A DNA stretch of 64,000 nucleotides from Eledone cirrhosa (taxonomy: Eukaryota): assembly GCA_964016885.1 (NCBI GenBank), contig OZ024741.1:240064001-240128000 (forward strand), read 5' to 3'. Numbering within the stretch: position 1 is the stretch's first letter; every line of letters begins with the position of its first letter. Shown piece after piece: positions 1,340 to 62,917 of the stretch. A program made the translations under genes and the position numbers. The notes beneath the pieces were generated by a model. The model was not told the DNA's origin. It did not search any database and saw only the letters and a list, made by a program, of their open reading frames with translations.

Positions 1340-1505
1340 CTGATATTCCTGGTAATTCTTCATAATGTTTCATATCACCTTCATTCAATACACGTCTACT
1401 GCTTCTCTTAGATGACATTGTATCTGATGTATAGTTACAAACTATAGGAGGATTATCTTCCACAGCATCATCACTTGATGTCACCACAACAGGTTGACAA
1501 TATTT
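1340..1505 (-). CDS. Pcdh: Protocadherin U1, coding exon B (cytoplasmic, 166 nt, KYCQPVV...PGIS)
   Basis: Acceptor TGTCAACAG|AAA in phase 0 with the large exon; donor CAG|GTTAAT; conserved in all 8 units. Confidence 0.85.
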
Positions 1506-1688: not shown

Positions 1689-4061
1689 TGGGGTAGTTTT
1701 TGGTAAAGTTCTTGCCTGAACTGAAGCTTCATATTTATTCTGTAGCTGACCTTCTGAATAACATTCACTCTTTGATCTCTCAGAATATATATTTCTTTTT
1801 ATCATCTCTTCTGTATTCCTTGACATAGCAACAGGATTGTTAGACTGATACAACAATTGTTTCATCTCTGTTCTACCTTGGTATGCTGTAGTCTTTGTTG
1901 TAGTAGCTGTGTTATCTCTGTGTTTAATACATTTCATTATACACAGTGTTATAGAAACAACAATAGCCACTGATACTATTACTGCTGATGATACAATGAT
2001 AATAACCCATGTCATATGGACTCTACCTGAAGATTGTAAAGGTACAATTTTCAACATTGGTGATGTCTCATTACTAACAGCCAATACCAAAGTCACACTA
2101 GTTGTTGATGACTGAACTGGACTACCACTGTCTTTTACAACAAACTTTAGTTCATAACTTCCAGCATCATTTAGATAAACTTGTCTGGAGAATGATAAAG
2201 CACCACTGTGTGAGTTCATAGTAAACAACTGTTTATTATTTCCTTGTATGATTTCATATGTGAGGAAAGCATTGTTTCCACTGTCACCATCAGATGCTCT
2301 CAAAACTGTGATGTCACTCTTACTCTGGGGATGGTAGTGGACATTTAGGGTGTAAGGGTCAACACTAGGAAAGGTGAAATATGGAACATTGTCATTTTGA
2401 TCTAAAATCTCAACAACAACATTAGCTGTGTCATTCAGAGATGGACTTCCATTATCTTTGACAAAAACCTGAAATTTATACACATCTTGTTTCTCTCTGT
2501 CTAATGACATGGTGGCTGAAATAAAGCCATAACTGGTGATCAGAAATGGTAGATTTGATTTTTCTTTATGTAGCAGAGAATATGTGAGTTGTCCAGCAGA
2601 TCCAAGGTCAGGGTCAGTGGCATTGACAAAACCAATAGGGAAGTCTTTATCTTTGTTTTCATAGGTCATGAATTGGAATGTATCTTTGGTAAACTGTGGT
2701 TGTACATCATTGATATCAGTCACTTGGATAGAGAGAGTTTTAACACTTTTAAGAGGTGGTAATCCTTTATCTTGACATGAGACAGGAATGTTATAGTGTC
2801 CTTGTGTTTCTCTGTCTACTGGTTTGTTTAGAACTATTTTATATTCTTTAGATCCCATTGACTGTAGTTTGAATGTATCATGTTTGATATCACAGCTGAC
2901 CTCTCCATTTTGTCCAACATCATTGTCAGTGACCATCACATAAGCAATGAAACTACCAACTTTGATCTTCTCAGAAATGGTAGCTGTGTTGTCATTGATA
3001 GCAGAAACATAATCTATATCAATAGATGGAGGGTTGTTGTGTTGGTTGATAACATTTAGCAGAACTGTTGCTATGGAACTGAGTGGAGGGTTGCCTCCAT
3101 CTCTAGCTTCTATGAATAATTCAAAAGAGCTTTTTTCATTTAAGCTAGAAATTCTGGACAAAAATATTTTGCCATCTTTTCTATTTAATTCAAAATATTT
3201 CCTAGCTTGATCAGAAGTTTTGGGACTGAAATGGAAAGTAATTTTACTGTTGGGTCCTAAATCTTTATCTGTTACTGACAAATTAAGAATAGGTTTGGTT
3301 ATATCATGAGTGGTTCTAATGGAAATATTATAAAGTGGTTTTGAAAATACAGGTGGATTATCATTCGCATCTTCCACAACAATCAGAACATTTAACACAC
3401 ACTGTTTAGATGGGGAGCCTCCATCTTTAGCAATAACTTCTAAATTGTATTTCTCTTTTATCTCCCGGTCTAATTTATCCTTTAAAACGATCTTTAATGA
3501 GGAAATACCATCAGCTCTTTTAGAAACTGATAGAGAAAATAAATCATTAGATTTTTTAAGTTTATATTCAATAAAAGAATTTTGGTAACTAATATCTTTG
3601 TCTATGGCATTTGGAATTGACTTTGTCAGACCTCTTCCACCTATTTCCTCAAATTGTAGAATGATTTGTTTTTCTGGAAACTCTGGTTCATGGTCGTTAA
3701 TGTCTTCTATTACTATTTTAACTTTTATGATTTTTGTGAAAGTTTCCACTTTTTTAATTATAATTTTAACAGTTCTAGAACATTCTTTGTTGAATGTACA
3801 GAGTTTCTCTGCATCCAGTGTCTGAGCAGTGTACAGTTTACCTGTTTTGGTGATATTAAATAACTGTGCCACCTTTCGTTTAAATTGACTGAATGTTATC
3901 AATTGTTGGTCAGATGGTTTAACATTGTCTAAAAGTTTAGAATCAGCAGCAATGTCTGCTACATATGTTCCTGGACTTCTCTCTTCTTCCACATGGTAGG
4001 TAAGGTCTATGGTCAGAACACAGTGAACCATTGATAATACAATAGACAATGGTAGTAACAT
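1689..4061 (-). CDS. Pcdh: Protocadherin U1, large coding exon (signal peptide, EC1-EC6, TM, juxtamembrane)
   Basis: DxNDxxP, LDRE and A/VxDxD cadherin motifs in six repeats; C-x5-C in EC1; hydrophobic TM WVIIIVSSAVIVSVAIVVSITLC; donor CCA|GTAAGT at 1689/1688; acceptor TTTCAG|G at 4174/4173. Confidence 0.95.
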
Positions 4062-9516: not shown

Positions 9517-9593
9517 TTATACATGTTTTATTGGTGTTTCTTCACTGGAATCTTTTGATGTACATGTATCATTGTTTTTGTATATATTTTGAT
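9517..9593 (-). CDS. Pcdh: Protocadherin U2, terminal coding exon C (DQNIYKNNDTCTSKDSSEETPIKHV*)
   Basis: Acceptor TTTCAG|AT completes the phase-1 codon; 77-nt conserved island in divergent DNA; mostly synonymous differences among paralogues. Confidence 0.85.
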
Positions 9594-9834
9594 CTGAAAT
9601 ATTGGAACAGAATATAGTTTAACAAAATTATCAAAATGATAATTTAGATACAAAATGTAAATTTACAAAATTATGAAAAACACCATTATGTTATTTAATA
9701 AGACAAGAAAATAATGCAACAGAAAAAATAGCTGAAATACACATTTAAAAAAAATATTTCTTAAAAGCAGCTGTAAATATATATATCTCTCTGAAAGCTA
9801 CCAACATAACATAATATTGTCTGTAGTTATTAAC

Positions 9835-10000
9835 CTGATATTCCTGGTAATTCTTCATAATGTTTCATATCACCTTCATTCAATACACGTCTACTACTTC
9901 TCTTAGATGACATTGTATCTGATGTATAGTTACAAACCATAGGAGGATTATCTTCCACAGCATCATCACTTGATGTCACCACAACAGGTTGACAGTATTT
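9835..10000 (-). CDS. Pcdh: Protocadherin U2, coding exon B
   Basis: Same splice sites and frame as U1. Confidence 0.85.
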
Positions 10001-10183: not shown

Positions 10184-12559
10184 TGGGGTAGGTTTTGGTA
10201 AAGTTCTTGACTGAACTGAAGAATCATATTTATTCTGTAGCTGACCTTCTGAATAACATTCACTCTTTGATCTCTCAGAATATATATTTCTTTTTATCAT
10301 CTCTTCTGTATTCCTTGACATAGCAACAGGATTGTTAGACTGATACAACAATTGTTTCATCTCTGTTCTACCTTGGTATGCTGTAGTCTTTGTTGTAGTA
10401 GCTGTGTTATCTCTGTGTTTAATACATTTCATTATACACAGTGTTATAGAAACAACAATAGCCACTGATACTATTACTGCTGATGATACAATGATAATAA
10501 CCCATGTCATATGGACTCTACCTGAAGATTGTAAAGGTACACTTTTCAACATTGGTGATGTCTCATTACTAACAGCCAATACCAAAGTCACACTAGTTGT
10601 TGATGACTGAACTGGACTACCACTGTCTTTTACAACAAACTTTAGTTCATAACTTCCAGCATCATTTAGATAAACTTGTCTAGAGAATGATAAAGCACCA
10701 CTGTGTGAGTTCATAGTAAACAACTGTTTATTATTTCCTTGTATGATTTCATATGTGAGGAAAGCATTGTTTCCACTGTCACCATCAGATGCTCTCAAAA
10801 CTGTGATGTCACTTTTACTCTGGGGATGGTAGTGAACATTTAGGGTGTAAGGGTTAACACTAGGAAAGGTGAAATATGGAACATTGTCATTTTGATCTAA
10901 AATCTCAACAACAACATTAGCTGTGTCATTCAGAGATGGACTTCCATTATCTTTGACAAAAACCTCAAATTTATACACATCTTGTTTCTCTCTGTCTAAT
11001 GACATGGTGGCTGAAATAAAGCCATAACTGGTGATCAGAAATGGTAGATTTGATTTTTCTTTATGTCGCAGAGAATATGTGAGTTGTCCAGCAGATCCAA
11101 GGTCAGGGTCAGTGGCATTGACAAAACCAATAGGGAAGTCTTTATCTTTGTTTTCATAGGTCAGGAATTGGAATGTATCTTTGGTAAACTGTGGTTGTAC
11201 ATCATTGATATCAGTCACTTGGATAGAGAGAGTTTTAACACTTTTAAGAGGAGGTAATCCTTTATCTTGACATGAGACAGGAATGTTATAGTGTCCTTGT
11301 GTTTCTCTGTCTACTGGTTTGTTTAGAACTATTTTATATTCTTTAGATCCCATTGATTGTAGTTTGAATGTATCATGTTTGATATCACAGCTGATCTCTC
11401 CATTTTGTCCAACATCATTGTCAGTGACCATCACATAAGCAATGAAACTACCAACTTTGATATCTTCAGAAATGGTAGCTGTGTGGTCATTGATAGCAGA
11501 AACATAATCTATATCAATAGATGGAGGGTTGTTGTGTTGGTTGATAATATTTACCAGAACTGTTGCTATGGAACTGTGAGGAGGGCTACCTCCATCTCTA
11601 GCCTCAATAAACAGCTCATATGTTTTCTTTTTTCCCAAACTTGAATATTTATTTAAGAAAATGTTTCCACTGGTTTCATTTAATTGGAAATAACTTTTTG
11701 CTAGATCTGATGTCTTTGGACTGAAATGGAAAGTAATTTTGCCATTTTCTCCAGAATCAGAATCTGTTACAGATAAAACAATGATAGGTTTAGATTTGTG
11801 ATGTGTACTTTGTATGGATATATTATATAGAGGTTTAGAAAATACTGGTGGGTTGTCATTTAAATCTGTTATAGAGATATTTATATTTAAAATACCTTGT
11901 TTTGATGGTGAACCTCCATCTTTAGCTATGACCTGTAATAAATATGTATCTTTGATTTCTCTGTCTAATGATTCTTTCAATACTATTTTAAGAGAAGAAA
12001 TACCATCTGCTCTTTTAGCGACCGACAAAGTGAACGGTTCTCCATTCTTAGATTTCAATTTATATTGTATTAATGAGTTTTGAAAACCCACATCTTTATC
12101 CATGGCATTTGGTATTGATCTGTCCGAACCTTTGCGATCATGTTCACCAAACACAATATTCACTGCTTTTATAGGAAACTCAGGTTGATGATCATTGATA
12201 TCTTCAATTACAATTTTGATTTTTAATATTTTAGTCACACTTCTTCCTTTGTTTACAACAACCTTCATAGTTCTAGAACATTCTTTGTTGAATGTACAGA
12301 GTTTCTCTGCATCCAGTGTCTGAGCAGTGTGTAGTTTACCTGTTTTAGTGATATTAAATAACTGTGCCACCTTTCGTTTAAATTGACTGAATGTTATCAA
12401 TTGTTGGTCAGATGGTTTAACATTGTCTAAAAGTTTAGAATCAGCAGCAATGTCTGCTACATATGTTCCTGGACTTCTCTCTTCTTCCACATGGTAGGTA
12501 AGGTCTATGGTCAGAACACAGTGGACCATTGATAATACAATAGACAATGACAGTAACAT
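10184..12559 (-). CDS. Pcdh: Protocadherin U2, large coding exon
   Basis: Six EC repeats and TM; donor CCA|GTAAGT; acceptor TTTTAG|G at 12624/12623. Confidence 0.95.
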
Positions 12560-13164
12560 TGTTGTTGTAGTAGTTGTTGTGTTGGTACTGGTTAAAGATG
12601 TTCAGATATGTTGAGGATTAAACCTAAAAGAGAAATACATCTTGAACAATTATCAAAAATGAATTACAATTATCTGTGAAACAATTGAATTATAGGAATC
12701 TATTACTGTACACAGAACATGTTTTAATTGTGGTTAATCAAACTGGTATTATATAGCTTTATTGAACAAATAACTAGATCCGAGTTTACCTTGAGAGAGT
12801 GGATTCAAACCCCAAGTTAGTCTATCTTCAGCTATACATATACACCGTGTAACAAAAAATTTTTTTTCTCTGTTCCTGGCTTGTAATCATTTTTTTTTGT
12901 GTTGCTTAGGTCCCAAATAAATAAAAAAAAGTGCTATTAAACAGTTAAAAGTTTGGGTTTGTAAAAATTCTAAGCTATTCACTAGAATTATTTGTATGCT
13001 GGATTTTATGTTGTATGTAAGTTTAATTTGCTTATGTTAAATGATTTTTTTTTATATATGTTTCAGTTAAATTAAAATTATAAAATAAAGAGTAATACCT
13101 AAAGAAAATTATAAAAGTGCAATAAAGTATCAAATTGTTAAAAAGTGGATTAAAGAGATTTATT

Positions 13165-14340
13165 GATACTGGGGTACCAGAAAAAGTTCCTCACTTCCCA
13201 AACCAAAAAGAAGTCAATGACTTGGTCAGGGATATGGGTCTGACCAAGTCTAATGCAGAGCTATTCGTCTCCAGGATGAAGCAATGGAACTTGGTCAAGG
13301 AGGAAGTGCAGGTGACAAGTCAGAGAAGTCAACACAAATCTTTCTCAGGCTTTTACACTCTTAGGGATGGCCTCTGCTATGACGTCCCTGGACTGTTTGA
13401 CGTTATTGGGGTGCCGTTTATGCCCAAGGAGTGGTGGCTATTTATAGACAGCTCCACCACAAGTTTGAAGGCTGTCCTCCTCCACAATGGAAACAAGTTC
13501 CTGACACTGCCCCTAGCTCATTCAGTCTGGCTGAAGGAAGATAACTACAGTGTGAAAGTCCTCTTGGAAGCTCTGCAATACAACCAGTACAATTGGGAAA
13601 TCATTGGAGACTTCAAGATGGTGGCTTTCCTGCTTGGACTCCAAGGAGGCTTTATCAAATTCCAATGCTTCCTCTGCCTTTGGGACAGCAGAGCCACCTC
13701 TGACCACTACAAAATAAAGAACTGGGAGCAGCGAACAGAATTTGTAGTTGGGATCCGGAACGTCATGTGGGAGCCACTGATTGATCCCAGGATTGTGCTC
13801 ATGCCGCCACTGCACATTAAGTTGGGCTTGATGAAGCAGTTTGTGAAGGCTCTCAACCAAGAATCAGCCGCTTTTAAGTACCTTCTTGAGTTCTTCCCCA
13901 AGTTATCTGAGGCCAAAATCAAAGGTGGAATTTTTGTTGGACCTCAGAAAAAGAAGGCCTTTGAGTCTACCGAGTTCTCCAATAAGCTCAATAGGATTGA
14001 GAGAACAGCATGGAACTGTTTCAAGGCAGTTGTTAAGGGCTTCCAGAGCTGAAAACTATCAGCAACTGGTGCAGGATCTGATAAAGGCTTTTGGCGCCAT
14101 GGGATGCAGGATGTCGCTTAAACTCCATATGCTGGATGCTCACCTGGAAAAATTCAAGGACAATATGGGCGCCTACTCAGAAGAACAAGGCGAATGATTC
14201 CACTAAGATGTGAAAGAGATAGAGCGGAGGTACCAGGGCCACTACAATGAAAAAATGATGGGGGACTATATCTGGGGGCTAGTGCGGGAATGTGACCTGG
14301 ACTACAACTGCAAATCCAGGAAATCCAGTCATTTCTGACG
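13165..14340 (+). pseudogene. Transposase pseudogene (Chapaev3-like)
   Basis: Motifs LFIDSS..SLKAVLLHNGN, CFLCLWDSRA, PPLHIKLGLMKQFVKAL, MSLKLHMLDAH, SEEQGE*FH*D; frameshift near 14045, in-frame stops, N-terminus apparently missing. Confidence 0.75.
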
Positions 14341-14440
14341 TGTATAAGTTGCTTTATAATGTTATTTGTTTTTACTTGTTTGCTTTTGATAAGCTTGTGT
14401 AATAAAATAAATATATACTCTGTTGATTTAATTATATGAA

Positions 14441-15753
14441 TCAATGGCCGAGCTAGAGAAGAAATTCCAAACATGGAAGCACGGCCTAGAATCAAAAGGC
14501 CTTAAAATTAACATGGATAAGACTAAAGTTCTAGTTTGTAGGAAAGAAAATAAGGCGCCGGTCCCTTCCGGGAAATGGCCATGCTCAGTGTGTAGGAAAG
14601 GCGTAGGTAGAAACTCCATTTTATGTCCCAAATGCAAAGTATGGGTGCATAAAAGATGTAGTGGGATCACAGGTAAGCTAACTAAGAACACAGATTTTAC
14701 ATGTGGCCGGTGCTCTGGTGCAATAAGTAGCAGCAAGTGCCCACAAAATACTAGCTCTTTCAACTGCGCAGAGGGTTCTATAGAAATAGTGGACAGCTTC
14801 CGTTACCTGGGTGACAAAATCAGCAGTGGGGGAGGGTGCTCCGAAAGTACAGTAGCTAAAGTCAGAACTGGATGGAAAAAGTTCAGAGAGCTTATACCAC
14901 TATTAGCCGCTAAAGGGTTCTCCCTAAAAGTGAAAGGCAGGTTGTACGATGCCTGCATACGAACAGCAATGTTGCATGGCAGTGAGACCTGGGCATTGTG
15001 TGCAGAGGATATACGCAGACTAGAGAGGAACGAAGCTTGCATGCTCCGCTGGATGTGTAATAGTAATATACGCGAACGGCAAAGTATAAACGAACTAAGG
15101 AAAAAATTAGAAATAAGAGGGATCAGATGTTGTTTACTCGAGAGAAGGCTACGTTGGTATGGTCACGTGATGCGCATGAAAGACGACAGCTGTATAACAA
15201 AGTGCAGGGCAATAAAGATAGATGGTAGCCACGGAGTAGGCAGACCCAGAAAAACCTGGGACGAGCTGATAAATTCCGACCTCACACACTTACACCTCTC
15301 CAAGACAATGTTACTGGACCGAGATCTTTGGCGGTACTCAGTAATAGAGAAGACCCGCGTTACCTAAATACAAAGTAAAACCTACTACAGTCAGTAGGCA
15401 TCTCTAACAAAATACACCCCCGTCCCACCACCCCCACCCCATCCACACCGCCCCTTTCAATGTAAAGTTATGTTGGTGCCACAAAATCCAGGCCGAAACA
15501 AATGAGATCGTGTAGGTGTCACGACAAAAAAACACACAGTCCACGCTGTAATGTGACCGTGTAGGCAACACGGTAAAAACCTCCCAGCCCCACCCTGAAA
15601 ATGTGGTTGGTGTTAGGAAGGGCATCCAGCTGTAGAAAACCCGCCAGACAGTCCTATGCGAGCAAGACAACCACTCTTGCCTACAGTGGGAAAACTCCCA
15701 TCCAAACCCATGCAAGCATGGAACACGGACGCTAAACCTTGATGATGATGATG
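14441..15753 (+). mobile_element. 5'-truncated, relatively young RTE/RTEX-like LINE nested in the DNA transposon
   Basis: Uninterrupted 307-aa ORF (end of RT, PHD-like Cys/His finger, FRYLG, LHGSETW, RLRWYGHV, GRPRKTW); (GAT)n tail; ATATGAA TSD at 14434-14440 and 15754-15760. Confidence 0.9.
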
Positions 15754-20366: not shown

Positions 20367-20443
20367 TTAAACATGTTTCACTGGTGTTTCTTCACTGGAA
20401 TCTTTTGATGTAGATGTATCGTTGTTTTTATATATATTTTGAT
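20367..20443 (-). CDS. Pcdh: Protocadherin U3, terminal exon C (DQNIYKNNDTSTSKDSSEETPVKHV*)
   Basis: Acceptor TTCCAG|AT; conserved frame and stop. Confidence 0.85.
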
Positions 20444-20720
20444 CTGGAATTTAGAGATAAAATATAGGTTTTACAAAATTATAGAGTTTACAAAATTTTG
20501 TAATTTAATTACTCAAATATATTAAAAAACAAAAACAAAGGACACACCGATAAAACTATACATTCCAAAATTTGTTATCACAGCAGATCCTCTAAGTAAC
20601 AGATGGGCAAACAAGAAAATTCATTAGTTACTGATATTTATGTTTCTTAATAGCAGTTAATAAATATCTACTTGAGATAAAATGATAATATAATATAACA
20701 TAACCAAAGTAGTTATTAAC

Positions 20721-20886
20721 CTGATATTCCAGGTATTTCTTCATAATGTTTCATATCACCTTCATTCAATACACGTCTACTACTTCTCTTAGATGACATT
20801 GTATCTGATGTATAGTTACAAACTATAGGAGGATTATCTTCCACAGCATCATCACTTGATGTCACCACAACAGGTTGACAATATTT
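20721..20886 (-). CDS. Pcdh: Protocadherin U3, coding exon B
   Basis: Same splice sites and frame as U1. Confidence 0.85.
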
Positions 20887-21068: not shown

Positions 21069-23444
21069 TGGGGTAGGTTTTGGTAAAGTTTTTGACTGAA
21101 CTGAAGCTTCATATTTATTCTGTAGCTGACCTTCTGAATAACATTCACTCTTTGATCTCTCAGAATATATATTTCTTTTTATCATCTCTTCTGTATTCCT
21201 TGACATAGCAACAGGATTGTTAGACTGATACAACAATTGTTTCATCTCTGTTCTACCTTGGTATGCTGTAGTCTTTGTTGTAGTAGCTGTGTTATCTCTG
21301 TGTTTAATACATTTCATTATACACAGTGTTATAGAAACAACAATAGCCACTGATACTATTACTGCTGATGATACAATGATAATAACCCATGTCATATGGA
21401 CTCTACCTGAAGATTGTAAAGGTACACTTTTCAACATTGGTGATGTCTCATTACTAACAGCCAATACCAAAGTCACACTAGTTGTTGATGATTGAACTGG
21501 ATTACCACTGTCTTTTACAACAAACTTTAGTTCATAACTTCCAGCATCATTTAGATAAACTTGTCTGGAGAATGATAAAGCACCACTGTGTGAGTTCATA
21601 GTAAACAACTGTTTATTATTTCCTTGTATGATTCCATATGTGAGGAAAGCATTGTTTCCACTGTCACCATCAGATGCTCTGAAAACTGTGATGTCACTCT
21701 TACTCTGGGGATGGTAGTGGACATTTAGGGTGTAAGGGTTAACACTAGGAAAGGTGAAATATGGAACATTGTCATTTTGATCTAAAATCTCAACAACAAC
21801 ATTGGCCGTGTCATTCAGAGATGGACTTCCATTATCTTTGACAAAAACTTCAAATTTATACACATCTTGTTTCTCTCTGTCTAATGACATGGTGGCTGAA
21901 ATAAAGCCATAACTGGTGATTAGAAATGGTAGATTTGATTTTTCTTTATGTAGCAAAGAATATGTGAGTTGTCCAGCAGATCCAAGGTCAGGGTCAGTGG
22001 CATTGACAAAACCAATAGGGAAGTCTTTATCTTTGTTTTCATAGGTCAGGAATTGGAATGTATCTTTGGTAAACTGTGGTTGTACATCATTAATATCAGT
22101 CACTTGGATAGAGAGAGTTTTAACACTTTTAAGAGGTGGTAATCCTTTATCTTGACATGAAACAGGAATGTTATAATGTCCTTGTGATTCTCTGTCTACT
22201 GGTTTGTTTAGAACTATTTTATATTCTTTAGATCCCATTGACTGTAATTTGAATGTATCATGTTTGATATCACAGCTGACCTCTCCATTTTGTCCAACAT
22301 CATTGTCAGTGACCATCACATAAGCAATGAAACTACCAACTTTGATATCTTCAGAAATGGTAGCTGTGTTGTCATTGATAGCAGAAACATAATCTATATC
22401 AATAGATGGAGGGTTGTTGTGTTGGTTGATAACATTTACCAGAACTGTTGCTATAGAACTGTGAGGTGGGTCACCCCTATCTCTGGCTTCAATAAATAAT
22501 TCATAGGTTTTCTTTTTTCCCAAACTTGAATATTTATTTAAGAAAATGTTTCCATTAGTTTCATTTAAATGGAAATAACTTTTTGCTAGATCTGATGTCT
22601 TTGGACTGAAATGGAAAGTAATTTTACCATTTTCACCAGAATCAGAATCTGTTACAGATAAAGCAATGATAGGTTTAGATTTGTGATGTGTACTTTGTAT
22701 GGATATATTATATAGAGGTTTAGAAAATACTGGTGGGTTGTCATTCACATCTATTATAGAGATATTTATATTTAAAATACCTTCTTTTGATGGTGAACCT
22801 CCATCTTTAGCTATGACCTGTAGTAAATATGTATCTTTGATTTCTCTGTCTAATGATTCTTTTAAAACTATTTTAAGAGAAGAAATACCATCTGCTCTTT
22901 TAGAGACTGACAGAGAGAATGGCTCGCCATTCTTTGATTTTAGTTTATATTGTATTAATGAGTTTTGAAAACCAACATCTTTGTCTATGGCATTTGGTAT
23001 TGTCCTCTTTGAACCTTTTGAAATATCTTCTCCAAGTTCCATATTGACATTCTTCTTAGGAAATTCAGGTAGATGGTCATTGACATCTTCTATTATTATT
23101 TTAATTTTCAATATTTTTGTGACACTTGTTCCTTTATTGACAACAACCTTCACAGTTCTAGAACATTCTTTGTTAAATGTACAGAGTTTCTCTGCATCCA
23201 GTATTTCAGCAGTGTACAGTTTTCCTGTTTTCGTGATATTAAATAACTGTGCCACCTTTCGTTTAAATTGACTGAATGTTATCAATTGTTGGTCAGATGG
23301 TTTAACATTGTCTAAAAGTTTAGAATCAACAGCAATGTCTGCTACATATGTTCCTGGACTTCTCTCTTCTTCCACATGGTAGGTAAGGTCTATGGTCAAA
23401 ACACAGTGAACCATTGATAATACAATAGTCAATGACAGGAACAT
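21069..23444 (-). CDS. Pcdh: Protocadherin U3, large coding exon (homologous ATG at 23444)
   Basis: Six EC repeats and TM; start assigned by homology to paralogues (MFLSLTIV). Confidence 0.93.
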
Positions 23445-28635: not shown

Positions 28636-28712
28636 TTAAACATGTTTCACTGGTGTTTCTTCACTGGAATCTTTTGATGTAGATGTATCGTTGTTTTTAT
28701 ATATGTTTTGAT
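28636..28712 (-). CDS. Pcdh: Protocadherin U4, terminal exon C
   Basis: Acceptor TTTCAG|AT; ends PVKHV*. Confidence 0.85.
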
Positions 28713-28942
28713 CTGAAATTCAGATACAAAATATAGGATTTACAAAATTTTAGAGTTGTCCATACTATTATTTCATTAGTGAGGCATATAATGAGACAAA
28801 ACATGTTTTCCAGAGTTTGTTATCAGAAAGGTTTCTCTAAGTCAATTCATTTTAATCAACTGACTATTATGCATTTCTTTAAAGTGATTGTAAATAAATG
28901 TCTACATTTAAGATGATGCCAAAATAAAATAATATTGTCAAC

Positions 28943-28988
28943 GTAGTTATTAACCTGATATTCCAGGTATTTCTTCATAATGTTTCAT
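28943..28988 (-). pseudogene. Orphan duplicate of the exon B 3' end (MKHYEEIPGISG plus donor)
   Basis: Matches the exon B end of the U3 type; no homologous acceptor. Confidence 0.8.
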
Positions 28989-29256: not shown

Positions 29257-29422
29257 CTGATATTCCTGGTAATTCTTCATAATGTTTCATATCACCTTCA
29301 TTCAATACACGTCTACTACTTCTCTTAGATGACATTGTATCTGATGTATAGTTACAAACTATAGGAGGATTATCTTCCACAGCATCATCACTGGATGTCA
29401 CCACAACAGGTTGACAGTATTT
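29257..29422 (-). CDS. Pcdh: Protocadherin U4, coding exon B
   Basis: Same splice sites and frame as U1. Confidence 0.85.
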
Positions 29423-29804: not shown

Positions 29805-32177
29805 TGGGGTAGGTTTTGGTAAAGTTCTTGCCTGAACTGAAGCTTCATATTTATTCTGTAGCTGACCTTCTGAATAACATTCACTCTTTGATCTCTCAGA
29901 ATATATATTTCTTTTTATCATCTCTTCTGTATTCCTTGACATAGCAACAGGATTGTTAGACTGATACAACAATTGTTTCATCTCTGTTCTACCTTGGTAT
30001 GCTGTAGTCTTTGTTGTAGTAGCTGTGTTATCTCTGTGTTTAATACATTTCATTATACACAGTGTTATAGAAACAACAATAGCCACTGATACTATTACTG
30101 CTGATGATACAATGATAATAACCCATGTCATATGGACTCTACCTGAAGATTGTATAGGTACACTTTTCAACATTGGTGATGTCTCATTACTAACAGCCAA
30201 TACCAAAGTCACACTAGTTGTTGATGACTGAACTGGACTACCACTGTCTTTTACAACAAACTTTAGTTCATAACTTCCAGCATCATTTAGATAAACTTGT
30301 CTGGAGAATGATAAAGCACCACTGTGTGAGTTCATAGTAAACAACTGTTTATTATTTCCTTGTATGATTCCATATGTGAGGAAAGCATTGTTTCCACTGT
30401 CACCATCAGATGCTCTGAAAACTGTGATGTCACTTTTACTCTGGGGATGGTAGTGAACATTTAGGATGTAAGGGTTAACACTAGGAAAGGTGAAATATGG
30501 AACATTGTCATTTTGATCTAAAATCTCAACAACAACATTAGCTGTGTCATTTAGAGATGGACTTCCATTATCTTTGACAAAAACTTCAAATTTATACACA
30601 TCTTGTTTCTCTCTGTCTAATGACATGGTGGCTGAAATAAAGCCATAACCGGTGATCAGAAATGGTAGATTTGATTTTTCTTTATGTATCAGAGAATATG
30701 TGAGTTGTCCAGCAGATCCAAGGTCAGGGTCAGTGGCATTGACAAAACCAATAGGGAAGTCTTTATCTTTGTTTTCATAGGTCAGGAATTGGAATGTATC
30801 TTTGGTAAACTGTGGTTGTACATCATTGATATCAGTCACTTGGATAGAGAGAGTTTTAACACTTTTAAGAGGAGGTAATCCTTTATCTTGACATGAGACA
30901 GGAATGTTATAGTGTCCTTGTGTTTCTCTGTCTACTGGTTTGTTTAGAACTATTTTATATTCTTTAGATCCCATTGACTGTAGTTTGAATGTATCATGTT
31001 TGATATCACAGCTGACCTCTCCATTTTGTCCAACATCATTGTCAGTGACCATCACATAAGCAATGAAACTACCAACTTTGATCTTCTCAGAAATGGTAGC
31101 TGTGTTTTCATTGATAGAAGAAACATAATCTATATCAATAGACGGAGGGTTGTTGTGTTGGTTGATAACATTTAGCAGAACTGTTGCAATGGAACTGAGT
31201 GGAGGCTTACCTCCATCTCTGGCTTCTATAAATAATTCAAAAGATGTTTTCTCATTTAAACTAGAAATTCTGGACAAAAATATTTTGCCATCTTTTTTAT
31301 TTAATTCAAAATATTTCTTTGCTTGATCAGAAGTTTTGGGGCTGAAATGGAAAGTAATTTTACTGTTGGATCCTAAATCTTTGTCTGTCACTGACAAATT
31401 AAGAATAGGTTTGGTTTTGTCATGTGTAGTTCTAATGGAAATATTATAAAGTGGTTTTGAAAATACAGGTGGATTATCATTCTCATCTTCCACAATAATC
31501 AGAACATTTAACACACATTGTTTAGATGGGGAACCTCCATCTTTAGCGATAACTTCCACATTGTATTTCTCTTTTATCTCTCTATCTAATTTATCTTTTA
31601 AAACAATCTTTAATGAGGAAATACCATCAGCTCTTTTAGAAACTGACAAAGAAAATAAGTCATTAGATTTTTTAAGTTTATATTCAATAAAAGAATTTTG
31701 GTAACTAATGTCATTGTCTATGGCATTTGGGATTGACTTTTTCATACCTTCCCGATCTCCTTCCCCAAATTGTAAAGTGATTTGTCTTTCTGGAAACTCT
31801 GGTTCATGGTCGTTAATGTCTTCTATTACTATTTTGACTTTTATAATTTTTGTGAACGTTTCTACTTTCTTCATTATAATTTTCACAGTTCTAGAACATT
31901 CTTTGTTGAATGTACAGAGTTTCTCTGCATCCAGTGTCTGAGCAGTGTACAGTTTACCTGTTTTGGTGATATTAAATAACTGTGCCACCTTTCGTTTAAA
32001 TTGACTGAATGTTATCAATTGTTGGTCAGATGGTTTAACACTGTCTAAAAGTTTAGAATCAGCAGCAATGTCTGCTACATATGTTCCTGGACTTCTCTCT
32101 TCTTCCACATGGTAGGTAAGGTCAATGGTCAGAACACAGTGGACCATTGATAATACAATAGATAATGACAGTAACAT
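29805..32177 (-). CDS. Pcdh: Protocadherin U4, large coding exon
   Basis: Six EC repeats and TM; donor CCA|GTAAGT; acceptor TTTTAG|A at 32238/32237. Confidence 0.95.
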
Positions 32178-36764: not shown

Positions 36765-36841
36765 TTAGACATGTTTCACTGGTGTTTCTTCACTGGAATC
36801 TTTTGATGATGATGTATTGTTGTTTTTATATATATTTTGAT
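36765..36841 (-). CDS. Pcdh: Protocadherin U5, terminal exon C (DQNIYKNNNTSSSKDSSEETPVKHV*)
   Basis: Acceptor TTGCAG|AT; conserved frame and stop. Confidence 0.85.
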
Positions 36842-36906
36842 CTGCAATTTAGGAAAAAATTACATTTTACAAAATTAAAGCAGGGAACATTTCCTTTTTA
36901 AATAAT

Positions 36907-37532: not shown

Positions 37533-39908
37533 TGGGGTAGGTTTTGGTAAAGTTTTTGACTGAACTGAAGCTTCATATTTATTCTGTAGCTGACCTTCTG
37601 AATAACATTCACTCTTTGATCTCTCAGAATATATATTTCTTTTTATCATCTCTTCTGTATTCCTTGACATAGCAACAGGATTGTTAGACTGATACAACAA
37701 TTGTTTCATCTCTGTTCTACCTTGGTATGCTGTAGTCTTTGTTGTAGTAGCTGTGTTATCTCTGTGTTTAATACATTTCATTATACACAGTGTTATAGAA
37801 ACAACAATAGCCACTGATACTATTACTGCTGATGATACAATGATAATAACCCATGTCATATGGACTCTACCTGAAGATTGTATAGGTACACTTTTCAACA
37901 TTGGTGATGTCTCATTACTAACAGCCAATACCAAAGTCACACTAGTTGTTGATGACTGAACGGGACTACCACTGTCTTTTACAACAAACTTTAGTTCATA
38001 ACTTCCAGCATCATTTAGATAAACTAGTCTGGAGAATGATAAAGCACCACTGTGTGAGTTCATAGTAAACAACTGTTTATTATTTCCTTGTATGATTTCA
38101 TATGTGAGGAAAGCATTGTTTCCACTGTCACCATCAGATGCTCTCAAAACTGTGATGTCACTCTTACTCTGGGGATGGTAGTGGACATTTAGGGTGTAAG
38201 GGTTAACACTAGGAAAGGTGAAATATGGAACATTGTCATTTTGATCTAAAATCTCAACAACAACATTAGCTGTGTCATTCAGAGATGGACTTCCATTATC
38301 TTTGACAAAAACTTCAAATTTATACACATCTTGTTTCTCTCTGTCTAATGACATGGTGGCTGAAATAAAGCCATAACTGGTGATCAGAAATGGTAGATTT
38401 GATTTTTCTTTATGTATCAGAGAATATGTGAGTTGTCCAGCAGATCCAAGGTCAGGGTCAGTGGCATTGACAAAACCAATAGGGAAGTCTTTATCTTTGT
38501 TTTCATAGGTCAGGAATTGGAATGTATCTTTGGTAAACTGTGGTTGTACATCATTGATATCAGTCACTTGGATAGAGAGAGTTTTAACACTTTTAAGAGG
38601 TGGTAATCCTTTATCTTGACATGAGACAGGAATGTTATAGTGTCCTTGTGTTTCTCTGTCTACTGGTTTATTTAGAACTATTTTATATTCTTTAGATCCC
38701 ATTGACTGTAGTTTGAATGTATCATGTTTGATATCACAGCTGACCTCTCCATTTTGTCCAACATCATTGTCAGTGACCATCACATAAGCAATGAAACTAC
38801 CAACTTTGATCTTCTCAGAAATGGTAGCTGTGTGATCATTGATAGCAGAAACATAATCTATATCAATAGATGGAGGGTTGTTGCGTTGATTGATAACATT
38901 TACCAGAACTGTTGCTATGGAACTGAGAGGAGGGCTCCCTCCATCTCTAGCCTCAATAAACAGCTCATAGGTTTTCTTTTTTCCTAAACTTGAATATTTA
39001 TTTAAGAAAATGTTTCCACTCGTTTCATTTAAGTGGAAATAACGTTTTGCTAGATCCGATGTCTTTGGACTGAAATGGAAAGTAATTTTACCATTTAGAC
39101 CAGAATCAGAATCTGTTACAGATAAAACAATGATAGGTTTAGATTTGTGATGTGTACTTTGTACTGATATATTATATAGAGGTTTAGAAAATACTGGTGG
39201 GTTGTCATTTAAATCTGTTATAGAGATATTTATATTTAACACACCCTGTTTTGATGGTGAACCTCCATCTTTAGCTATGACTTGTAGTAAATATCTATCT
39301 TTGATTTCTCTATCTAATGATTCTTTCAAAACTATTTTAAGAGAAGAAATACCATCTGCTCTTTTAGAAACAGACAGAGAGAATGGTTCGCCATTCTTTG
39401 ATTTTAATTTATATTGTATTAAGGAGTTTTGAAACCCAACATCTTTGTCTATGGCATTTGGTAGTGATCGTTTTGAACTGATACGATCATCTTCTCCAAA
39501 CAAGATATTTACAGTTTTCCTAGGAAACTCCGGTTCATGGTCATTGATGTCTTCTATTACTATTTTAATTTTTAATATTTTAGTAACACTTACTCCTTTA
39601 TTGACAACAACCTTCACAGTTCTAGAACATTCTTTGTTAAATGTACAAAGTTTCTCTGCATCCAGTGTCTGAGCAGTGTACAGTTTACCTGTTTTGGTGA
39701 TATTAAATAACTGTGCCACCTTTCGTTTAAATTGACTAAATGTTATCAATTGTTGGTCAGATGGTTTAACATTGTCTAAAAGTTTAGAATCAGCAGCAAT
39801 GTCTGCTACATATGTTCCTGGACTTCTCTCTTCTTCCACATGGTAGGTAAGGTCTATGGTCAGAACACAGTGGACCATTGATAATACAATAGACAATGAC
39901 AGTAACAT
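37533..39908 (-). CDS. Pcdh: Protocadherin U5, large coding exon
   Basis: Six EC repeats and TM; acceptor TTTTAG|G at 39963/39962. Confidence 0.95.
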
Positions 39909-44480: not shown

Positions 44481-46856
44481 TGGGGTAGGTTTTGGTAAAG
44501 TTCTTGACTGAACTGAAGCTTCATATTTATTCTGTAGCTGACCTTCTGAATAACATTCACTCTTTGATCTCTCAGAATATATATTTCTTTTTATCATCTC
44601 TTCTGTATTCCTTGACATAGCAACAGGATTGTTAGACTGATACAACAATTGTTTCATCTCTGTTCTACCTTGGTATGCTGTAGTCTTTGTTGTAGTAGTT
44701 GTGTTATCTCTGTGTTTAATACATTTCATTATACACAGTGTTATAGAAACAACAATAGCCACTGATACTATTACTGCTGATGATACAATGATAATAACCC
44801 ATGTCATATGGACTCTACCTGAAGATTGTAAAGGTACACTTTTCAACATTGGTGATGTCTCATTACTAACAGCCAATACCAAAGTCACACTAGTTGTTGA
44901 TGACTGAACTGGACTACCACTGTCTTTTACAACAAACTTTAGTTCATAACTTCCAGCATCATTTAGATAAATTTGTCTGGAGAATGATAAAGCACCACTG
45001 TGTGAGTTCATAGTAAACAACTGTTTATTATTTCCTTGTATGATTTCATATGTGAGGAAAGCATTGTTTCCACTGTCACCATCAGATGCTCTCAAAACTG
45101 TGATGTCACTCTTACTCTGGGGATGGTAGTGGACATTTAGGGTGTAAGGGTTAACACTAGGAAAGGTGAAATATGGAATATTGTCATTTTGATCTAAAAT
45201 CTCAACAACAACATTGGCTGTGTCATTTAGAGATGGACTTCCATTATCTTTGACAAAAACTTCAAATTTATACACATCTTGTTTCTCTCTGTCTAATGAC
45301 ATGGTAGCTGAAATAAAGCCATAACTGGTGATCTGAAATGGTAGATTTGATTTTTCGTTATGTATCAGAGAATATGTGAGTTGTCCAGCAGATCCAAGGT
45401 CAGGGTCAGTGGCATTGACAAAACCAATAGGGAAGTCTTTATCTTTGTTTTCATAGGTCAGGAATTGGAATGTATCTTTGGTAAACTGTGGTTGTACATC
45501 ATTGATATCAGTCACTTGGATAGAGAGAGTTTTAACACTTTTAAGAGGTGGTAATCCTTTATCTTGACATGAGACAGGAATGTTATAGTGTCCTTGTGTT
45601 TCTCTGTCTACTGGTTTGTTTAGAACTATTTTATATTCTTTAGATCCCATTGAATGTAGTTTGAATGTATCATGTTTGATATCACAGCTGACCTCTCCAT
45701 TTTGTCCAACATCATTGTCAGTGACCATCACATAAGCAATGAAACTACCAACTTTGATCTTCTCAGAAATAGTAGCTGTGTTATCATTGAATGTAGAAAC
45801 ATAATCTATATCAATAGATGGAGGGTTGTTGTGTTGGTTGATAACATTTACTAGTACTGTTGCTATAGAACTATGAGGACGGCTACCCCCATCTCTGGCT
45901 TCTATAAACAATTCATAAGTTTTCTTTTTTCCTAAACTTGAATATTTACTTAACAAAATGTTTCCACTAGTTTCATTTAATTGGAAATAACGTTTTGCCA
46001 GATCTGATGTCTTTGGGCTGAAATGGAAAGTAATTTTACCATTTTCACCAGAATCAGAATCTGTTACAGATAAAACAATGATAGGTTTAGATTTGTGATG
46101 TGTACTTTGTATGGATATATTATATAGAGGTTTAGAAAATACTGGTGGGTTATCATTTAAATCTGTTATAGAGATATTTATATTTAAAATACTCTGTTTT
46201 GATGGTGAACCTCCATCTTTAGCTGTGACTTGTAGTAAATATCTATCTTTGATTTCTCTGTCTAATGATTCTTTCAATACTATTTTAAGAGAAGAAATAC
46301 CATCTGCTCTTTTAGAGACTGACAGAGAGAATGGTTCACCATTCTTGGATTTTAATTGATATTGTATTAATGAGTTTTGAAAACCTACATCCTTGTCTAT
46401 GGCATTTGGTAGAGTTCTTTTCGAACTGATACGTGCATCTTCTCCAAACAACATATTTACAGTTTTCCTAGGAAACTCCGGTTCATGGTCATTGATGTCT
46501 TCTATTACTATTTTAATTTTCAGTATTTTAGTAACACTTACACCTTTATTGACAACAACCTTCACAGTTCTAGAACATTCTTTGTTGAAAGAACAGAGCT
46601 TCTCTGCATCCAGTGTCTGAGCAGTGTACAGTTTACCTGTTTTGGTGACATTAAATAACTGTGCCACCTTTCGTTTAAATTGACTGAATGTTATCAATTG
46701 TTGGTCAGATGGTTTAACATTGTCTAAAAGTTTAGAATCAGCAGCAATGTCTGCTACATATGTTCCTGGACTTCTCTCTTCTTCCACATGGTAGGTAAGG
46801 TCTATGGTCAGAACACAGTGGACCATTGATAATACAATAGACAATGACAGTAACAT
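44481..46856 (-). CDS. Pcdh: Protocadherin U6, large coding exon
   Basis: Six EC repeats and TM; acceptor at 46914/46913. Confidence 0.95.
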
Positions 46857-51654: not shown

Positions 51655-54030
51655 TGGGGTAGGTTTTGGTAAAGTTCTTGACTGAACTGAAGCTTCATAT
51701 TTATTCTGTAGCTGACCTTCTGAATAACATTCACTCTTTGATCTCTCAGAATATATATTTCTTTTTATCATCTCTTCTGTATTCCTTGACATAGCAACAG
51801 GATTGTTAGACTGATACAACAATTGTTTCATCTCTGTTCTACCTTGGTATGCTGTAGTCTTTGTTGTAGTAGCTGTGTTATCTCTGTGTTTAATACATTT
51901 CATTATACACAGTGTTATAGAAACAACAATAGCCACTGATACTATTACTGCTGATGATACAATGATAATAACCCATGTCATATGGACTCTACCTGAAGAT
52001 TGTATAGGTACACTTTTCAACATTGGTGATGTCTCATTACTAACAGCCAATACCAAAGTCACACTAGTTGTTGATGACTGAACTGGACTACCACTGTCTT
52101 TTACAACAAACTTTAGTTCATAACTTCCAGCATCATTTAGATAAACTTGTCTGGAGAATGATAAAGCACCACTGTGTGAGTTCATAGTAAACAACTGTTT
52201 ATTATTTCCTTGTATGATTCCATATGTGAGGAAAGCATTGTTTCCACTGTCACCATCAGATGCTCTCAAAACTGTGATGTCACTCTTACTCTGGGGATGG
52301 TAGTGGACATTTAGGGTGTAACGGTTAACACTAGGAAAGGTGAAATATGGAACATTGTCATTTTGATCTAAAATCTCAACAACAACATTAGCTGTGTCAT
52401 TCAGAGATGGACTTCCATTATCTTTGACAAAAACCTCAAATTTATACACATCTTGTTTCTCTCTGTCTAATGACATGGTGGCTGAAATAAAGCCATAACT
52501 GGTGATCAGAAATGGTAGATTTGATTTTTCTTTATGTATCAGAGAATATGTGAGTTGTCCAGCAGATCCAAGGTCAGGGTCAGTGGCATTGACAAAACCA
52601 ATAGGGAAGTCTTTATCTTTGTTTTCATAGGTCAGGAATTGGAATGTATCTTTGGTAAACTGTGGTTGTACATCATTGATATCAGTCACTTGGATAGAGA
52701 GAGTTTTAACACTTTTAAGAGGAGGTAATCCTTTATCTTGACATGAGACAGGAATGTTATAGTGTCCTTGTGTTTCTCTGTCTACTGGTTTGTTTAGAAC
52801 TATTTTATATTCTTTAGATCCCATTGACTGTAGTTTGAATGTATCATGTTTGATATCACAGCTGATCTCTCCATTTTGTCCAACATCATTGTCAGTGACC
52901 ATCACATAAGCAATGAAACTACCAACTTTGATCTTCTCAGAAATGGTAGCTGTGTGGTCATTGATAGCAGAAACATAATCTATATCAATAGATGGAGGGT
53001 TGTTGTGTTGGTTGATAACATTTACCAGAACTGTTGCTATGGAACTGAGAGGAGGGCTGCCTCCATCTCTAGCCTCAATAAACAGCTCATAGGTTTTCTT
53101 TTTTCCCAAACTTGAATATTTATTTAAGAAAATGTTTCCACTCGTTTCATTTAATTGAAAATAACTTTTTGCTAGATCTGATGTCTTTGGACTGAAATGG
53201 AAAGTAATTTTACCATTTTCACCAAAATCAGAATCTGTTACAGATAAAATAATGATAGGTTTAGATTTGTGATGTGTACTTTGTATGGATATATTGTATA
53301 GAGGTTTAGAAAACACTGGTTGGTTGTCATTCACATCTATTATAGAAATATTTATATTTAAAATACCTTCTTTTGATGGTGAACCTCCATCTTTAGCTAT
53401 GACCTGTAGTAAATATGTATCTTTGATTTCTCTATCTAATGATTCTTTTAAAACTATTTTAAGTGAAGAAATACCATCTGCTCTTTTAGCAACTGACAGA
53501 GAGAATGGTTCTCCATTCTTCGATTTCAATTGATATTGTATTAATGAGTTTTGAAAGCCTACATCCTTGTCTATGGCATTTGGTATTGACATCTTAGAAT
53601 CTTTGCGATCATTTTCGCTAAACTGTATATTGACACTATACATGGGAAAGACTGGTTGATGATCATTGATGTCTTCTATTACTATTTTGACTTTTATGAT
53701 TTTAGTGAAAGTTTCCACTTTTGTGATTATAATTTTAATAGTTCTAGAACACTCTTTGTTGAATGTACAGAGCTTCTCTGCATCCAGTGTCTGAGCAGTG
53801 TACAGTTTACCTGTTTTGGTGATATTAAATACATGTGCCACCTTTCGTTTGAATTGACTGAATGTTATCAATTGTTGGTCAGATGGTTTAACATTGTCTA
53901 AAAGTTTAGAATCAGCAGCAATGTCTGCTACATATGTTCCTGGACTTCTCTCTTCTTCCACATGGTAGGTAAGGTCTATGGTCAGAACACAGTGGACCAT
54001 TGATAATACAATAGACAATGACAGTAACAT
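51655..54030 (-). CDS. Pcdh: Protocadherin U7, large coding exon
   Basis: Six EC repeats and TM; acceptor at 54088/54087. Confidence 0.95.
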
Positions 54031-60149: not shown

Positions 60150-60192
60150 CTTGATGATATCAAAATATAATATAAGCAAAGTAGATATTGAC

Positions 60193-60541: not shown

Positions 60542-62917
60542 TGGGGTAGGTTTTGGTAAAGTTCTTGACTGAACTGAAGCTTCATATTTATTCTGTAGCT
60601 GACCTTCTGAATAACATTCACTCTTTGATCTCTCAGAATATATATTTCTTTTTATCATCTCTTCTGTATTCCTTGACATAGCAACAGGATTGTTAGACTG
60701 ATACAACAATTGTTTCATCTCTGTTCTACCTTGGTATGCTGTAGTGTTTGTTGTAGTAGCTGTGTTATCTCTGTGTTTAATACATTTCATTATACACAGT
60801 GTTATAGAAACAACAATAGCCACTGATACTATTACTGCTGATGATACAATGATAATAACCCATGTCATATGGACTCTACCTGAAGATTGTAAAGGTACAC
60901 TTTTCAACATTGGTGATGTCTCATTACTAACAGCCAATACCAAAGTCACACTAGTTGTTGATGACTGAACTGGACTACCACTGTCTTTTACAACAAACTT
61001 TAGTTCATAACTTCCAGCATCATTTAGATAAACTTGTCTGGAGAATGATAAAGCACCACTGTGTGAGTTCATAGTAAACAACTGTTTATTATTTCCTTGT
61101 ATGATTTCATATGTGAGGAAAGCATTGTTTCCACTGTCACCATCAGATGCTCTGAAAACTGTGATGTCACTTTTACTCTGGGGATGGTAGTGGACATTTA
61201 GGGTGTAAGGGTCAACACTAGGAAAGGTGAAATATGGAACATTGTCATTTTGATCTAAAATCTCAACAACAACATTGGCTGTGTCATTTAGAGATGGACT
61301 TCCATTATCTTTGACAAAAACTTCAAATTTATACACATCTTGTTTCTCTCTGTCTAATGACATGGTGGCTGAAATAAAGCCATAACTGGTGATCAGAAAT
61401 GGTAGATTTGATTTTTCTTTATGTATCAGAGAATATGTGAGTTGTCCAGCAGATCCAAGGTCAGGGTCAGTGGCATTGACAAAACCAATAGGGAAGTCTT
61501 TATCTTTGTTTTCATAGGTTAGGAATTGGAATGTATCTTTGGTAAACTGTGGTTGTACATCATTGATATCAGTCACTTGGATAGAGAGAGTTTTAACACT
61601 TTTAAGAGGTGGTAATCCTTTATCTTGACATGAGACAGGAATGTTATAGTGTCCTTGTGTTTCTCTGTCTACTGGTTTGTTTAGAACTATTTTATATTCT
61701 TTAGATCCCATTGACTGTAGTTTGAATGTATCATGTTTGATATCACAGCTGACCTCTCCATTTTGTCCAACATCATTGTCAGTGACCATCACATAAGCAA
61801 TGAAACTGCCAACTTTGATCTTCTCAGAAATGGTTCCTGAGTTATAATTGGTTGCAGAAACATAATCTATATCAATAGATGGAGGGTTGTTGTGTTGGTT
61901 GATAACATTTACCAGAACTGTTGCTATGGAACTGAAGGGAGGGTTACCCCCATCTCTGGCCTCGATAAACAGTTCATAGGTTTTCTTTTTTCCCAAACTT
62001 GAATATTTACTTAAGAAAATGTTTCCACTGGTTTCATTTAACTGAAAATAACTTTTTGTTAGATCTGATGTTTTGGGGCTAAAATGGAAAGTAATTTTAC
62101 CATTTTCACCAGAATCAGAATCTGTTACAGATAAAACAATGATAGGTTTAGATTTGTGATGTGTACTTTGTATGGATATATTATATAGAGGTTTAGAAAA
62201 TACTGGTGGGTTGTCATTCACATCTATTATAGAGATATTTATATTTAAAATACCTTGTTTAGATGGTGAACCTCCATCTTTAGCTATGACTTGTAGTAAA
62301 TATGTATCTTTGATTTCTCTATCTAATGATTCTTTTAAAACTATTTTAAGTGAAGAAATACCATCTGCTCTTTTAGAGACAGACAGAGAGAATGGTTCTC
62401 CATTCTTGGATTTTAATTTATATTGTATTAATGAGTTCTGAAAACCTACATCTTTGTCTATGGCATTTGGTAGCGATCTCTTTGAACCTTTGCGATCATC
62501 TTCACCAAATTGTATGTTGACATTCTTTATAGGAAACTCTGGTTGATGGTCATTGATGTCTTCTATTACTATTTTGACTTTTAATATTTTTGTAAAAGTT
62601 TCCACTTTCTTTATAATAATTTTCACAGTTCTAGAACATTCTTTGTTGAAAGAACAAAGTTTCTCTGCATCCAGTGTCTGAGCAGTGTACAGTTTACCTG
62701 TTTTCGTGATATTAAATAACTGTGCCACCTTTCGTTTAAATTGACTGAATGTTATCAATTGTTGGTCAGATGGTTTAACATTGTCTAAAAGTTTAGAATC
62801 AGCAGCAATGTCTGCTACATATGTTCCTGGACTTCTTTCTTCTTCCACATGGTAGGTAAGGTCTATGGTCAGAACACAGTGTACCATTGATAATACAATA
62901 GACAATGACAGTAACAT
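60542..62917 (-). CDS. Pcdh: Protocadherin U8, large coding exon
   Basis: Six EC repeats and TM; acceptor TTTCAG|A at 62981/62980. Confidence 0.95.

Follow-up and report, generated by a model that had tools for sequence, protein, structure and literature searches.

Co-varying residues in tandem octopod protocadherin genes point to an antiparallel homophilic dimer

The eight near-identical protocadherin genes in the 64,000-nucleotide stretch of Eledone cirrhosa DNA analysed here (the window) are distinguished mainly by a few surface patches. Within each gene, residues on the two surfaces predicted to face one another change in concert, and each protein therefore likely binds its own kind in a head-to-tail arrangement, like the vertebrate protocadherins. 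In the reading that we consider fairly probable as a whole, co-varying EC1-EC4 surfaces would form antiparallel homophilic dimers, the old isoform-specific variants of which would be kept by selection, the rest of the genes being homogenised by gene conversion. Taken separately, the antiparallel dimer is very probable on the sequence evidence and selection for self-match within each gene is probable, and for isoform discrimination in binding the balance is only somewhat favourable. The structural half of the original prediction was strengthened by the analysis, while its claims about dN/dS and about an independently evolved interface had to be corrected.

The window contains eight minus-strand open reading frames of 827-838 codons each in the ORF list, which were named U1-U8 in coordinate order (Table 1). 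Each of them constitutes exon 1 of a protocadherin with six repeats (Pfam PF00028, PF08266). The features defining the protocadherin family were all found, namely a signal peptide, six cadherin repeats, a Cadherin_2-type EC1 and one transmembrane segment (TM), the signal peptide and the TM being read directly off the sequence. The best matches among solved structures were Pcdh8.1, Pcdh10 and gammaB4, and the fold of the predicted model gave TM scores of 0.62-0.81 with the Pcdh EC1-4 structures. By tblastn, an own exon 2 was located for all eight genes and an own exon 3 for seven; in the case of U1 no exon 3 match was obtained below position 1341 (minus strand) within the window, and this exon may lie outside the window or be absent. 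Since every gene carries its own 3' exons, U1-U8 are whole-gene duplicates. Shared constant exons of the vertebrate style were rejected, the downstream exons being separate for each gene. In U4 a short additional copy of the end of exon 2 was noticed between exons 2 and 3 (28956-28988 of the window, minus strand). Residues are numbered as in the structural model (U1 residue minus 17, EC1 beginning at 1).

Table 1. Positions of the protocadherin features within the window
Feature	Position	Strand	Details
U1 exon 1: signal peptide, EC1-EC6, TM and tail start; EC2-EC3 type I	1689..4061	minus	ORF, ATG, splice donor, Pfam cadherin
U1 EC2 A-A'-B hypervariable patch, 21 aa	3612..3674	minus	model residues 113-133
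U1 EC1 F-G hairpin, two haplotypes	3720..3770	minus	residue 89 at 3744-3746, coupled to EC4 residue 348
U1 EC2 E-strand residue 173 (K/N/R)	3492..3494	minus	top inter-domain pair, partner residue 310
U1 EC3 F-G loop DGGNPPL	3081..3101	minus	307 = Pcdh10 Pro318, 310 = Pcdh10 Val321
U1 EC4 A-A' insertion and A'B loop, SAINDN to residue 348	2967..3005	minus	co-varies with EC1 F-G
U1 own exon 2, approximate	1341..1505	minus	tblastn
U2 exon 1, type II	10184..12559	minus	patch 12110-12172; own exons ~9836-10000, ~9520-9603
U3 exon 1, type II	21069..23444	minus	patch 22995-23057; own exons ~20722-20886, ~20370-20450
U4 exon 1, type I	29805..32177	minus	patch 31728-31790; own exons ~29258-29422, ~28639-28719
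U5 exon 1, type II	37533..39908	minus	patch 39459-39521; own exons ~37185-37349, ~36768-36848
U6 exon 1, type II	44481..46856	minus	patch 46407-46469; own exons ~44140-44304, ~43403-43483
U7 exon 1, type I-like EC1 F-G on type II EC2-3	51655..54030	minus	patch 53581-53643; own exons ~51314-51478, ~50577-50657
U8 exon 1, type I-like EC1 F-G on type II EC2-3	60542..62917	minus	patch 62468-62530; own exons ~60182-60358, ~59695-59775

The window carries eight of the 30 genes of array A, a clade on C2 in which all genes lie on the same strand within ~0.28 Mb and which adjoins array B, a second clade sampled at 32 genes. In the search of the same genome 150 of 1166 candidates were scored; beyond the window there were 142 matches, of which 140 were retrieved. 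Among the matches listed, the named relatives came from Octopus, Argonauta and one cuttlefish, those from Octopus and Argonauta being 77-91% identical. The EC2-EC3 region of array A occurs in two old types (8 type I and 22 type II genes), which recombine with two EC1 F-G haplotypes. Array B (C2:239.38-239.66 Mb, L027-L058, 32 genes) has the same profile, with EC1 and EC4 to tail homogenised and EC2 A-B variable, and its patch motifs match those of array A with up to 81% identity and saturated codons.

The peptides on which the original prediction was based (eight EC2 starts, six variants of the EC3 F-G loop and five of the EC4 start) are all present in the eight reading frames, and the start of EC2 differs in all eight genes, as it had stated. 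In U1 the interval singled out there, 3610-3775, spans EC1 strand F to EC2 strand B, both included. A distinct EC2 A-B patch is carried by 29 of the 30 genes in array A and by 26 of the 32 in array B. Between EC1-F and the EC4 start, the most variable 21-residue segment of U1-U8 begins at the patch, and the mean entropy in the eight genes was 1.20 bits in the patch vs 0.33 in the remaining EC2-EC3, a value reached in none of 5000 site shuffles. Synonymous divergence (pS) among the eight likewise peaked in the patch, at 0.56; it was 0.36-0.48 over the stretch between EC1-F and EC3, and only 0.00-0.04 over the remainder of EC4 and on to the tail; the profiles of the 30 and of the 32 genes agree with that of the eight. 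Much of the EC2-EC3 variation among the eight is the old two-type split, U1 and U4 vs the rest, and is spread across both faces.

The position of the variable residues on the dimer faces was assessed by homology. Strands were taken from an AlphaFold2 monomer (pLDDT 86.9), and the faces were assigned via strand homology and alignments, not coordinates. As described in the accessible text of PMC7082078, the EC1 CFG face meets EC4 ABED and EC2 ABED meets EC3 CFG. According to the alignments, model residues 128-131 are equivalent to Pcdh10 122-125 and 215 to Ser226 (for 307 and 310 see Table 1), and 119, 359 and 389 are equivalent to gammaB4 111, 338 and 369; the U1 patch thus contains the equivalents of gammaB 111 and Pcdh10 122-125. 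The specificity pairs 111:294 and 86:369 are given in gammaB7 numbering in the available part of PMC5106212; this was taken as equal to the gammaB4 numbering (E41, K338 and R340 agree). Vertebrate couplings include 84-338 and 39-338, as far as covered in the text of bioRxiv 10.1101/493106.

In the eight window genes variability was enriched on the interface faces of EC2 (p=0.017) and EC4 (p=0.004) and not significantly in EC3 (p=0.98), EC1 (p=0.14) or pooled EC2+EC3 (p=0.36), all face-enrichment p-values treating adjacent sites as independent. Exposed interface-face sites were more variable within type II in EC2 (p=7e-6), EC4 (p=0.002) and EC1 (p=0.05) but not in EC3 (p=0.47), and within type I in EC2+EC3 (p=0.002); across all 30 genes they were not more variable (p=0.28), and array B was a marginal case (entropy p=0.018, omega p=0.07). 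Of the 16 high-entropy type II sites lying outside the patch, 13 are on interface faces (p=8e-4); the corresponding figure across all 30 genes is 14 of 33 (p=0.47, no enrichment). The original placement of the patches on the antiparallel EC1:EC4 and EC2:EC3 surfaces is supported by homology, and this geometry is recovered by the couplings described below. Prediction of a U1 EC1-4 homodimer complex, run without an alignment, scored 0.01 and gave no contacts.

Further evidence for the dimer came from direct coupling analysis. Mean-field DCA was carried out on 316 EC1-4 rows, comprising 148 proteins of the same genome and 168 of 183 database proteins (effective size 138-228), after rows with lengths outside 400-1300 aa or with at least 40 gaps had been dropped; 43,675 pairs from four other domain combinations, with a maximum of 1.64, served as control. 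Fifteen inter-domain pairs exceeded the control maximum and all 15 fell in the two expected combinations, i.e. 7 of 10,710 EC1-EC4 pairs (96-389, 82-359, 89-348, 82-389, 96-359, 45-333, 36-425) and 8 of 11,112 EC2-EC3 pairs (173-310, 145-264, 165-263, 156-308, 168-308, 167-262, 168-261, 165-261). Six of the seven and six of the eight are on the published dimer faces (base rate 0.18-0.19; p=2e-4 and 9e-4, respectively). Since EC1 and EC4 are unable to touch in the extended cadherin monomer, an antiparallel dimer would be the simplest reading of the EC1-EC4 coupling. The EC1:EC4 plus EC2:EC3 geometry is supported here through sequence coupling, and the antiparallel dimer is now backed by evidence from the octopod genes themselves.

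The pairs 173-310, 89-348 and 96-389 recurred when the 148 own-genome and the 168 database rows were run separately. With the database rows 173-310, 96-389, 82-359 and 89-348 were clearly over the controls; with the own-genome rows 145-264, 173-310 and 167-262 were over them, and EC1-EC4 was at the control level (controls up to 2.13, best EC1-EC4 pair 2.06). In array B the pair 145-264 is perfectly coupled (S-K in 23, R-T in 9 genes). The pair 165:297, predicted beforehand from the delta-2 salt bridge, was rejected, as it ranked about 7,900 of 11,112 with R-K as the commonest state. Charge swaps recurred in the 316 rows: K96-E389 was found in 263 vs E96-K/R389 in 48, and R89-D348 in 6 vs E89-K348 in 15. 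The rows with the reverse charge set are a minority (D/E82-K359 in 52, in addition to the 48 above) and resemble vertebrate gammaB E77/K338. Cephalopods may have two EC1:EC4 classes, as judged from positions 82, 96, 359 and 389.

The patch behaved differently. The two strongest couplings overall lie within it (123-128 and 123-130), and none of its partners exceeded the DCA control maximum, the best ones in EC3 being 131-271 (1.37) and 131-308 (1.34). The contact role assigned to the patch is thus based on homology and on the conservation of the patch across genera. The intra-patch couplings would also fit another function, in which the patch serves a heterophilic partner, a cis contact or the tuning of the EC2-EC3 calcium junction, trans binding being set by 173-310 and the EC1-EC4 pairs; the genes L006 and L009, having the same patch and different residues at 173/310, show that the patch varies independently of this pair. 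However, residues 119 and 128-131 align with the trans-contact residues gammaB 111 and Pcdh10 122-125 (available text of PMC5106212 and PMC7082078), and the weak couplings 131-308 and 132-310 point toward an EC3 contact, so that we regard such another role as quite unlikely.

Association of partner residues was also followed inside the arrays. A first scan of allele-pair r2 was set aside, because rare alleles match by chance in small sets and the permutation threshold there became 1.0; it was replaced by a family-wise chi-square scan of distant pairs, stratified by type. Four of 4171 distant pairs passed in array A (173N-310F, and 86K with 340, 342 and 343), one of 4701 in Argonauta (173-310), four of 3901 in array B (all EC2-EC3) and 13 of 10,157 in the pooled set, all of them EC1-EC4 or EC2-EC3. 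No pair involving the patch passed the family-wise scan, the best being 125-215 (pooled p=0.068). The co-varying partners are 411-777 bp apart in array A, and the nucleotide sites between them show little linkage: when the 22 type II genes were compared, r2 to residue 89 was up to 1.0 at 347-348 and at most 0.42, with bin means of 0.05-0.08, at residues 103 to 325. Selection probably leaves long-range linkage within genes otherwise scrambled by conversion.

All 12 genes with N173 have F310, on both backbones, although Asn is encoded by AAT in the type I genes and by AAC in those of type II; U8 is the sole F310 gene of array A with K173. U2 carries R89, D348 and H310, and U8 carries E89, K348 and F310; U5 and U6 differ from each other at 21 positions, 3 of them within the patch. 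D348 is present in all 11 genes with R or T at 89 and in none of the other 19, R and T being grouped post hoc; by single allele, without this grouping, the pooled p was 0.10. Exceptions to the pairing occur in Octopus (D89-D348, K173-F310). Part of the linkage between EC1 and EC4 could be inherited from an ancestor and retained on either side of an EC2-EC3 cassette that was swapped. As the cause of the 173-310 association this is unlikely, because that pairing has likely two origins and is repeated in Argonauta. Residues 89/348 and 173/310 together form only 16 combinations among the 30 genes. The classes of EC1:EC4 are few, and many paralogs therefore have the same one. As candidate residue pairs for specificity, 89-348, 86-340/343, 173-310 and 96-389 can be named.

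The age of the variants was judged from protein trees of several species, for which 67 proteins were supplied and rows without an anchor motif were left out. The EC5-tail tree of 66 array A proteins (own genome, Argonauta and two Octopus species) needed 2 species-label changes, the fewest possible (shuffled mean 29.7). For EC2-EC3, with 65 proteins, the tree needed 7 changes, and every lineage contained both type I and type II. Both the divergence profiles and the protein trees indicate that EC2-EC3 escapes gene conversion. Patch identity between paralogs was 0.49; for the best match among 38 proteins from other species it was 0.82, the null for the latter being 0.67 after column shuffling with a maximum of 0.71 in 500; the U2 patch differs from one O. 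vulgaris patch at 2 of 21 positions. Interface residues are therefore variable among paralogs and conserved across species, by best match rather than by strict one-to-one orthology. Judged from these comparisons, the patch variants predate the Argonauta-Octopus split, and these old variants are likely kept by selection against gene conversion. Recent transfer of patches between arrays A and B was rejected, because 48% of the codons for identical residues differ, a share close to that of the flanking sequence. EC1 (1-77) and EC4 (350-435) of array A are 96% identical at the protein level to Argonauta and Octopus, thus strong purifying selection adds to the homogenisation. A Jukes-Cantor date reported in the accessible text of PMC9795677 gives a recent burst 8-14 Ma ago; it may be biased young through conversion. 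The analysis suggests such a bias for dating of these arrays by whole-gene distances.

The original prediction ascribed the patches to diversifying selection, and this part was not upheld. Codon site models M7, M8a and M8 were fitted on a grid with a purpose-written implementation, not PAML. On a single tree from EC1-F to the EC4 start, M8 vs M8a gave 2dL=12.75 with omega 1.7, and eight sites had a posterior >0.5 (five in the patch, an EC2-EC3 linker residue, 307 and 310), all at interface-homologous positions, as would be expected if ongoing positive selection with dN/dS>1 were creating new specificities. However, gene conversion ignored by a single tree can inflate site-model tests, and the signal vanished when each segment was given a local tree: for the patch M8 equalled M8a (2dL=0) in both arrays, and in array A its omega stayed below 1. 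Simulations on the patch tree, with no recombination within the segment, yielded no false positive in 12 runs; when a quarter of the sites had an omega of 2.2 or 3, the test detected it 12 times of 12. Since the signal was confined to the single-tree fit that ignores conversion, classical diversifying selection is unsupported; given also the age of the variants relative to the Argonauta-Octopus split, ongoing creation of new specificities is very improbable. In array A the local trees flagged two sites with omega>1, alignment columns 389 and 401, both in the homogenised EC4; these were taken as likely conversion artefacts. The patch variants are old, shared across genera and under purifying constraint.

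The same results bear on a further alternative, in which the dimer is antiparallel but promiscuous within the array, the patch being old because its divergence blocks conversion and the residue pairs preserving self-affinity without excluding paralogs. It would agree with the joint peak of pS and pN, the patch omega below 1, the absence of a significant partner for the patch and the 16 combinations mentioned above. Yet the patch variants are kept at the protein level across genera, and between arrays A and B though about half of the shared codons differ, and the isolated variable sites in homogenised type II sequence are on interface faces (13 of 16); this alternative is on these grounds unlikely.

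Under the reading which we prefer, self-matching antiparallel dimers with old variants kept by selection, the homophilic dimer would form in trans. Conversion would homogenise the EC1 start, EC4-EC6 and the tail, and would reshuffle modules consisting of EC1 F-G with the EC4 start, EC2-E173 with EC3-310, the A-B patch and the type I/II backbone. Recombinants whose two faces are mismatched would be removed by selection, which would also preserve the repertoire of old A-B motifs. The module combinations might then make binding specific to the isoform in part, the A-B patch contributing most to the discrimination, and the exclusion of other isoforms and any neuronal role would be further presumed steps. 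A stronger version is tentative and falls somewhat short of an even chance: a modular recombining code of ancient trans-genus motifs, with self-matching selected, strict isoform-specific homophilic binding and neuronal self/non-self recognition, convergent with vertebrates and operating without alternative promoters or splicing.

Cephalopod protocadherin arrays and a role for conversion are already published (PMC9068888, Albertin 2022; PMC6339937, Styfhals 2019; PMC9795677; PMC10084454, each in its accessible text). The genes described here share with those arrays (PMC9068888, PMC6339937, PMC9795677) the head-to-tail whole-gene duplication, the large first exon, the own 3' exons and the species-level homogenisation, suggested there as gene conversion. 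The published accounts differ, in the text available, in having no domain-level conversion profile, interface mapping or coupling. No interface mapping, coupling or binding study of cephalopod protocadherins was found in the literature searched, most subscription papers being outside its scope; the accessible portions of the expansion papers make no functional claim, and that of PMC6339937 states that nothing is known of octopus protocadherin adhesion specificity. The cephalopod expansion is commonly used to illustrate convergence with vertebrate brains. The original prediction held that the system evolved independently. This is right for the gene expansion (accessible text of PMC9068888 and PMC10084454) but likely not for the interface, since the antiparallel dimer was deduced to be ancestral, by parsimony from vertebrate families, in PMC5001838, the available part of which does not mention octopus.

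With the vertebrate clustered protocadherins (alpha, beta, gamma) the octopod genes have in common the six EC repeats in one exon, the escape of EC2-EC3 from conversion with other domains homogenised (PMC4978886, accessible text), residues varying between isoforms and conserved across species (PMC5106212, likewise) and matching coupled positions (model 359 = gammaB 338, 389 = gammaB 369). They differ in the lack of shared constant exons, in the ~30% identity, in their independent expansion and in the concentration of variation in one 21-aa patch and a few paired sites; dN/dS above 1 at interface sites, a mark of the clustered family, appeared here only as the weak single-tree signal. The octopod genes are not members of the vertebrate clustered family, having no shared constant exons, but they likely function in a similar way. 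The non-clustered delta-protocadherins (Pcdh8, 10, 17, 18, 19) are the best sequence and fold matches (6vg1, 6vg4, 6vfr), with the same predicted CFG:ABED faces, and the octopod EC4 A-A' insertion aligns to Pcdh8.1 free of gaps. However, they are single-copy genes with conserved interface cores, their delta-2 Arg-Glu salt-bridge pair is uncoupled in the octopod rows, and their conserved EC1 acidic residue is Lys in most of these rows.

In public annotations (P0121-P0134, P0169-P0178, P0146) distinct ectodomains are called 'isoforms' of one gene, or several genes are fused into products of 1,600-5,400 aa; these entries are likely annotation merges, because the tails differ slightly and the genes analysed here own their exons. 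Two intergenic plus-strand reading frames were also observed in the window, at 13126-14052 (308 aa, no Pfam match) and 14432-15367 (311 aa, PHD-like Pfam match), which we take to resemble transposon or LINE remnants.
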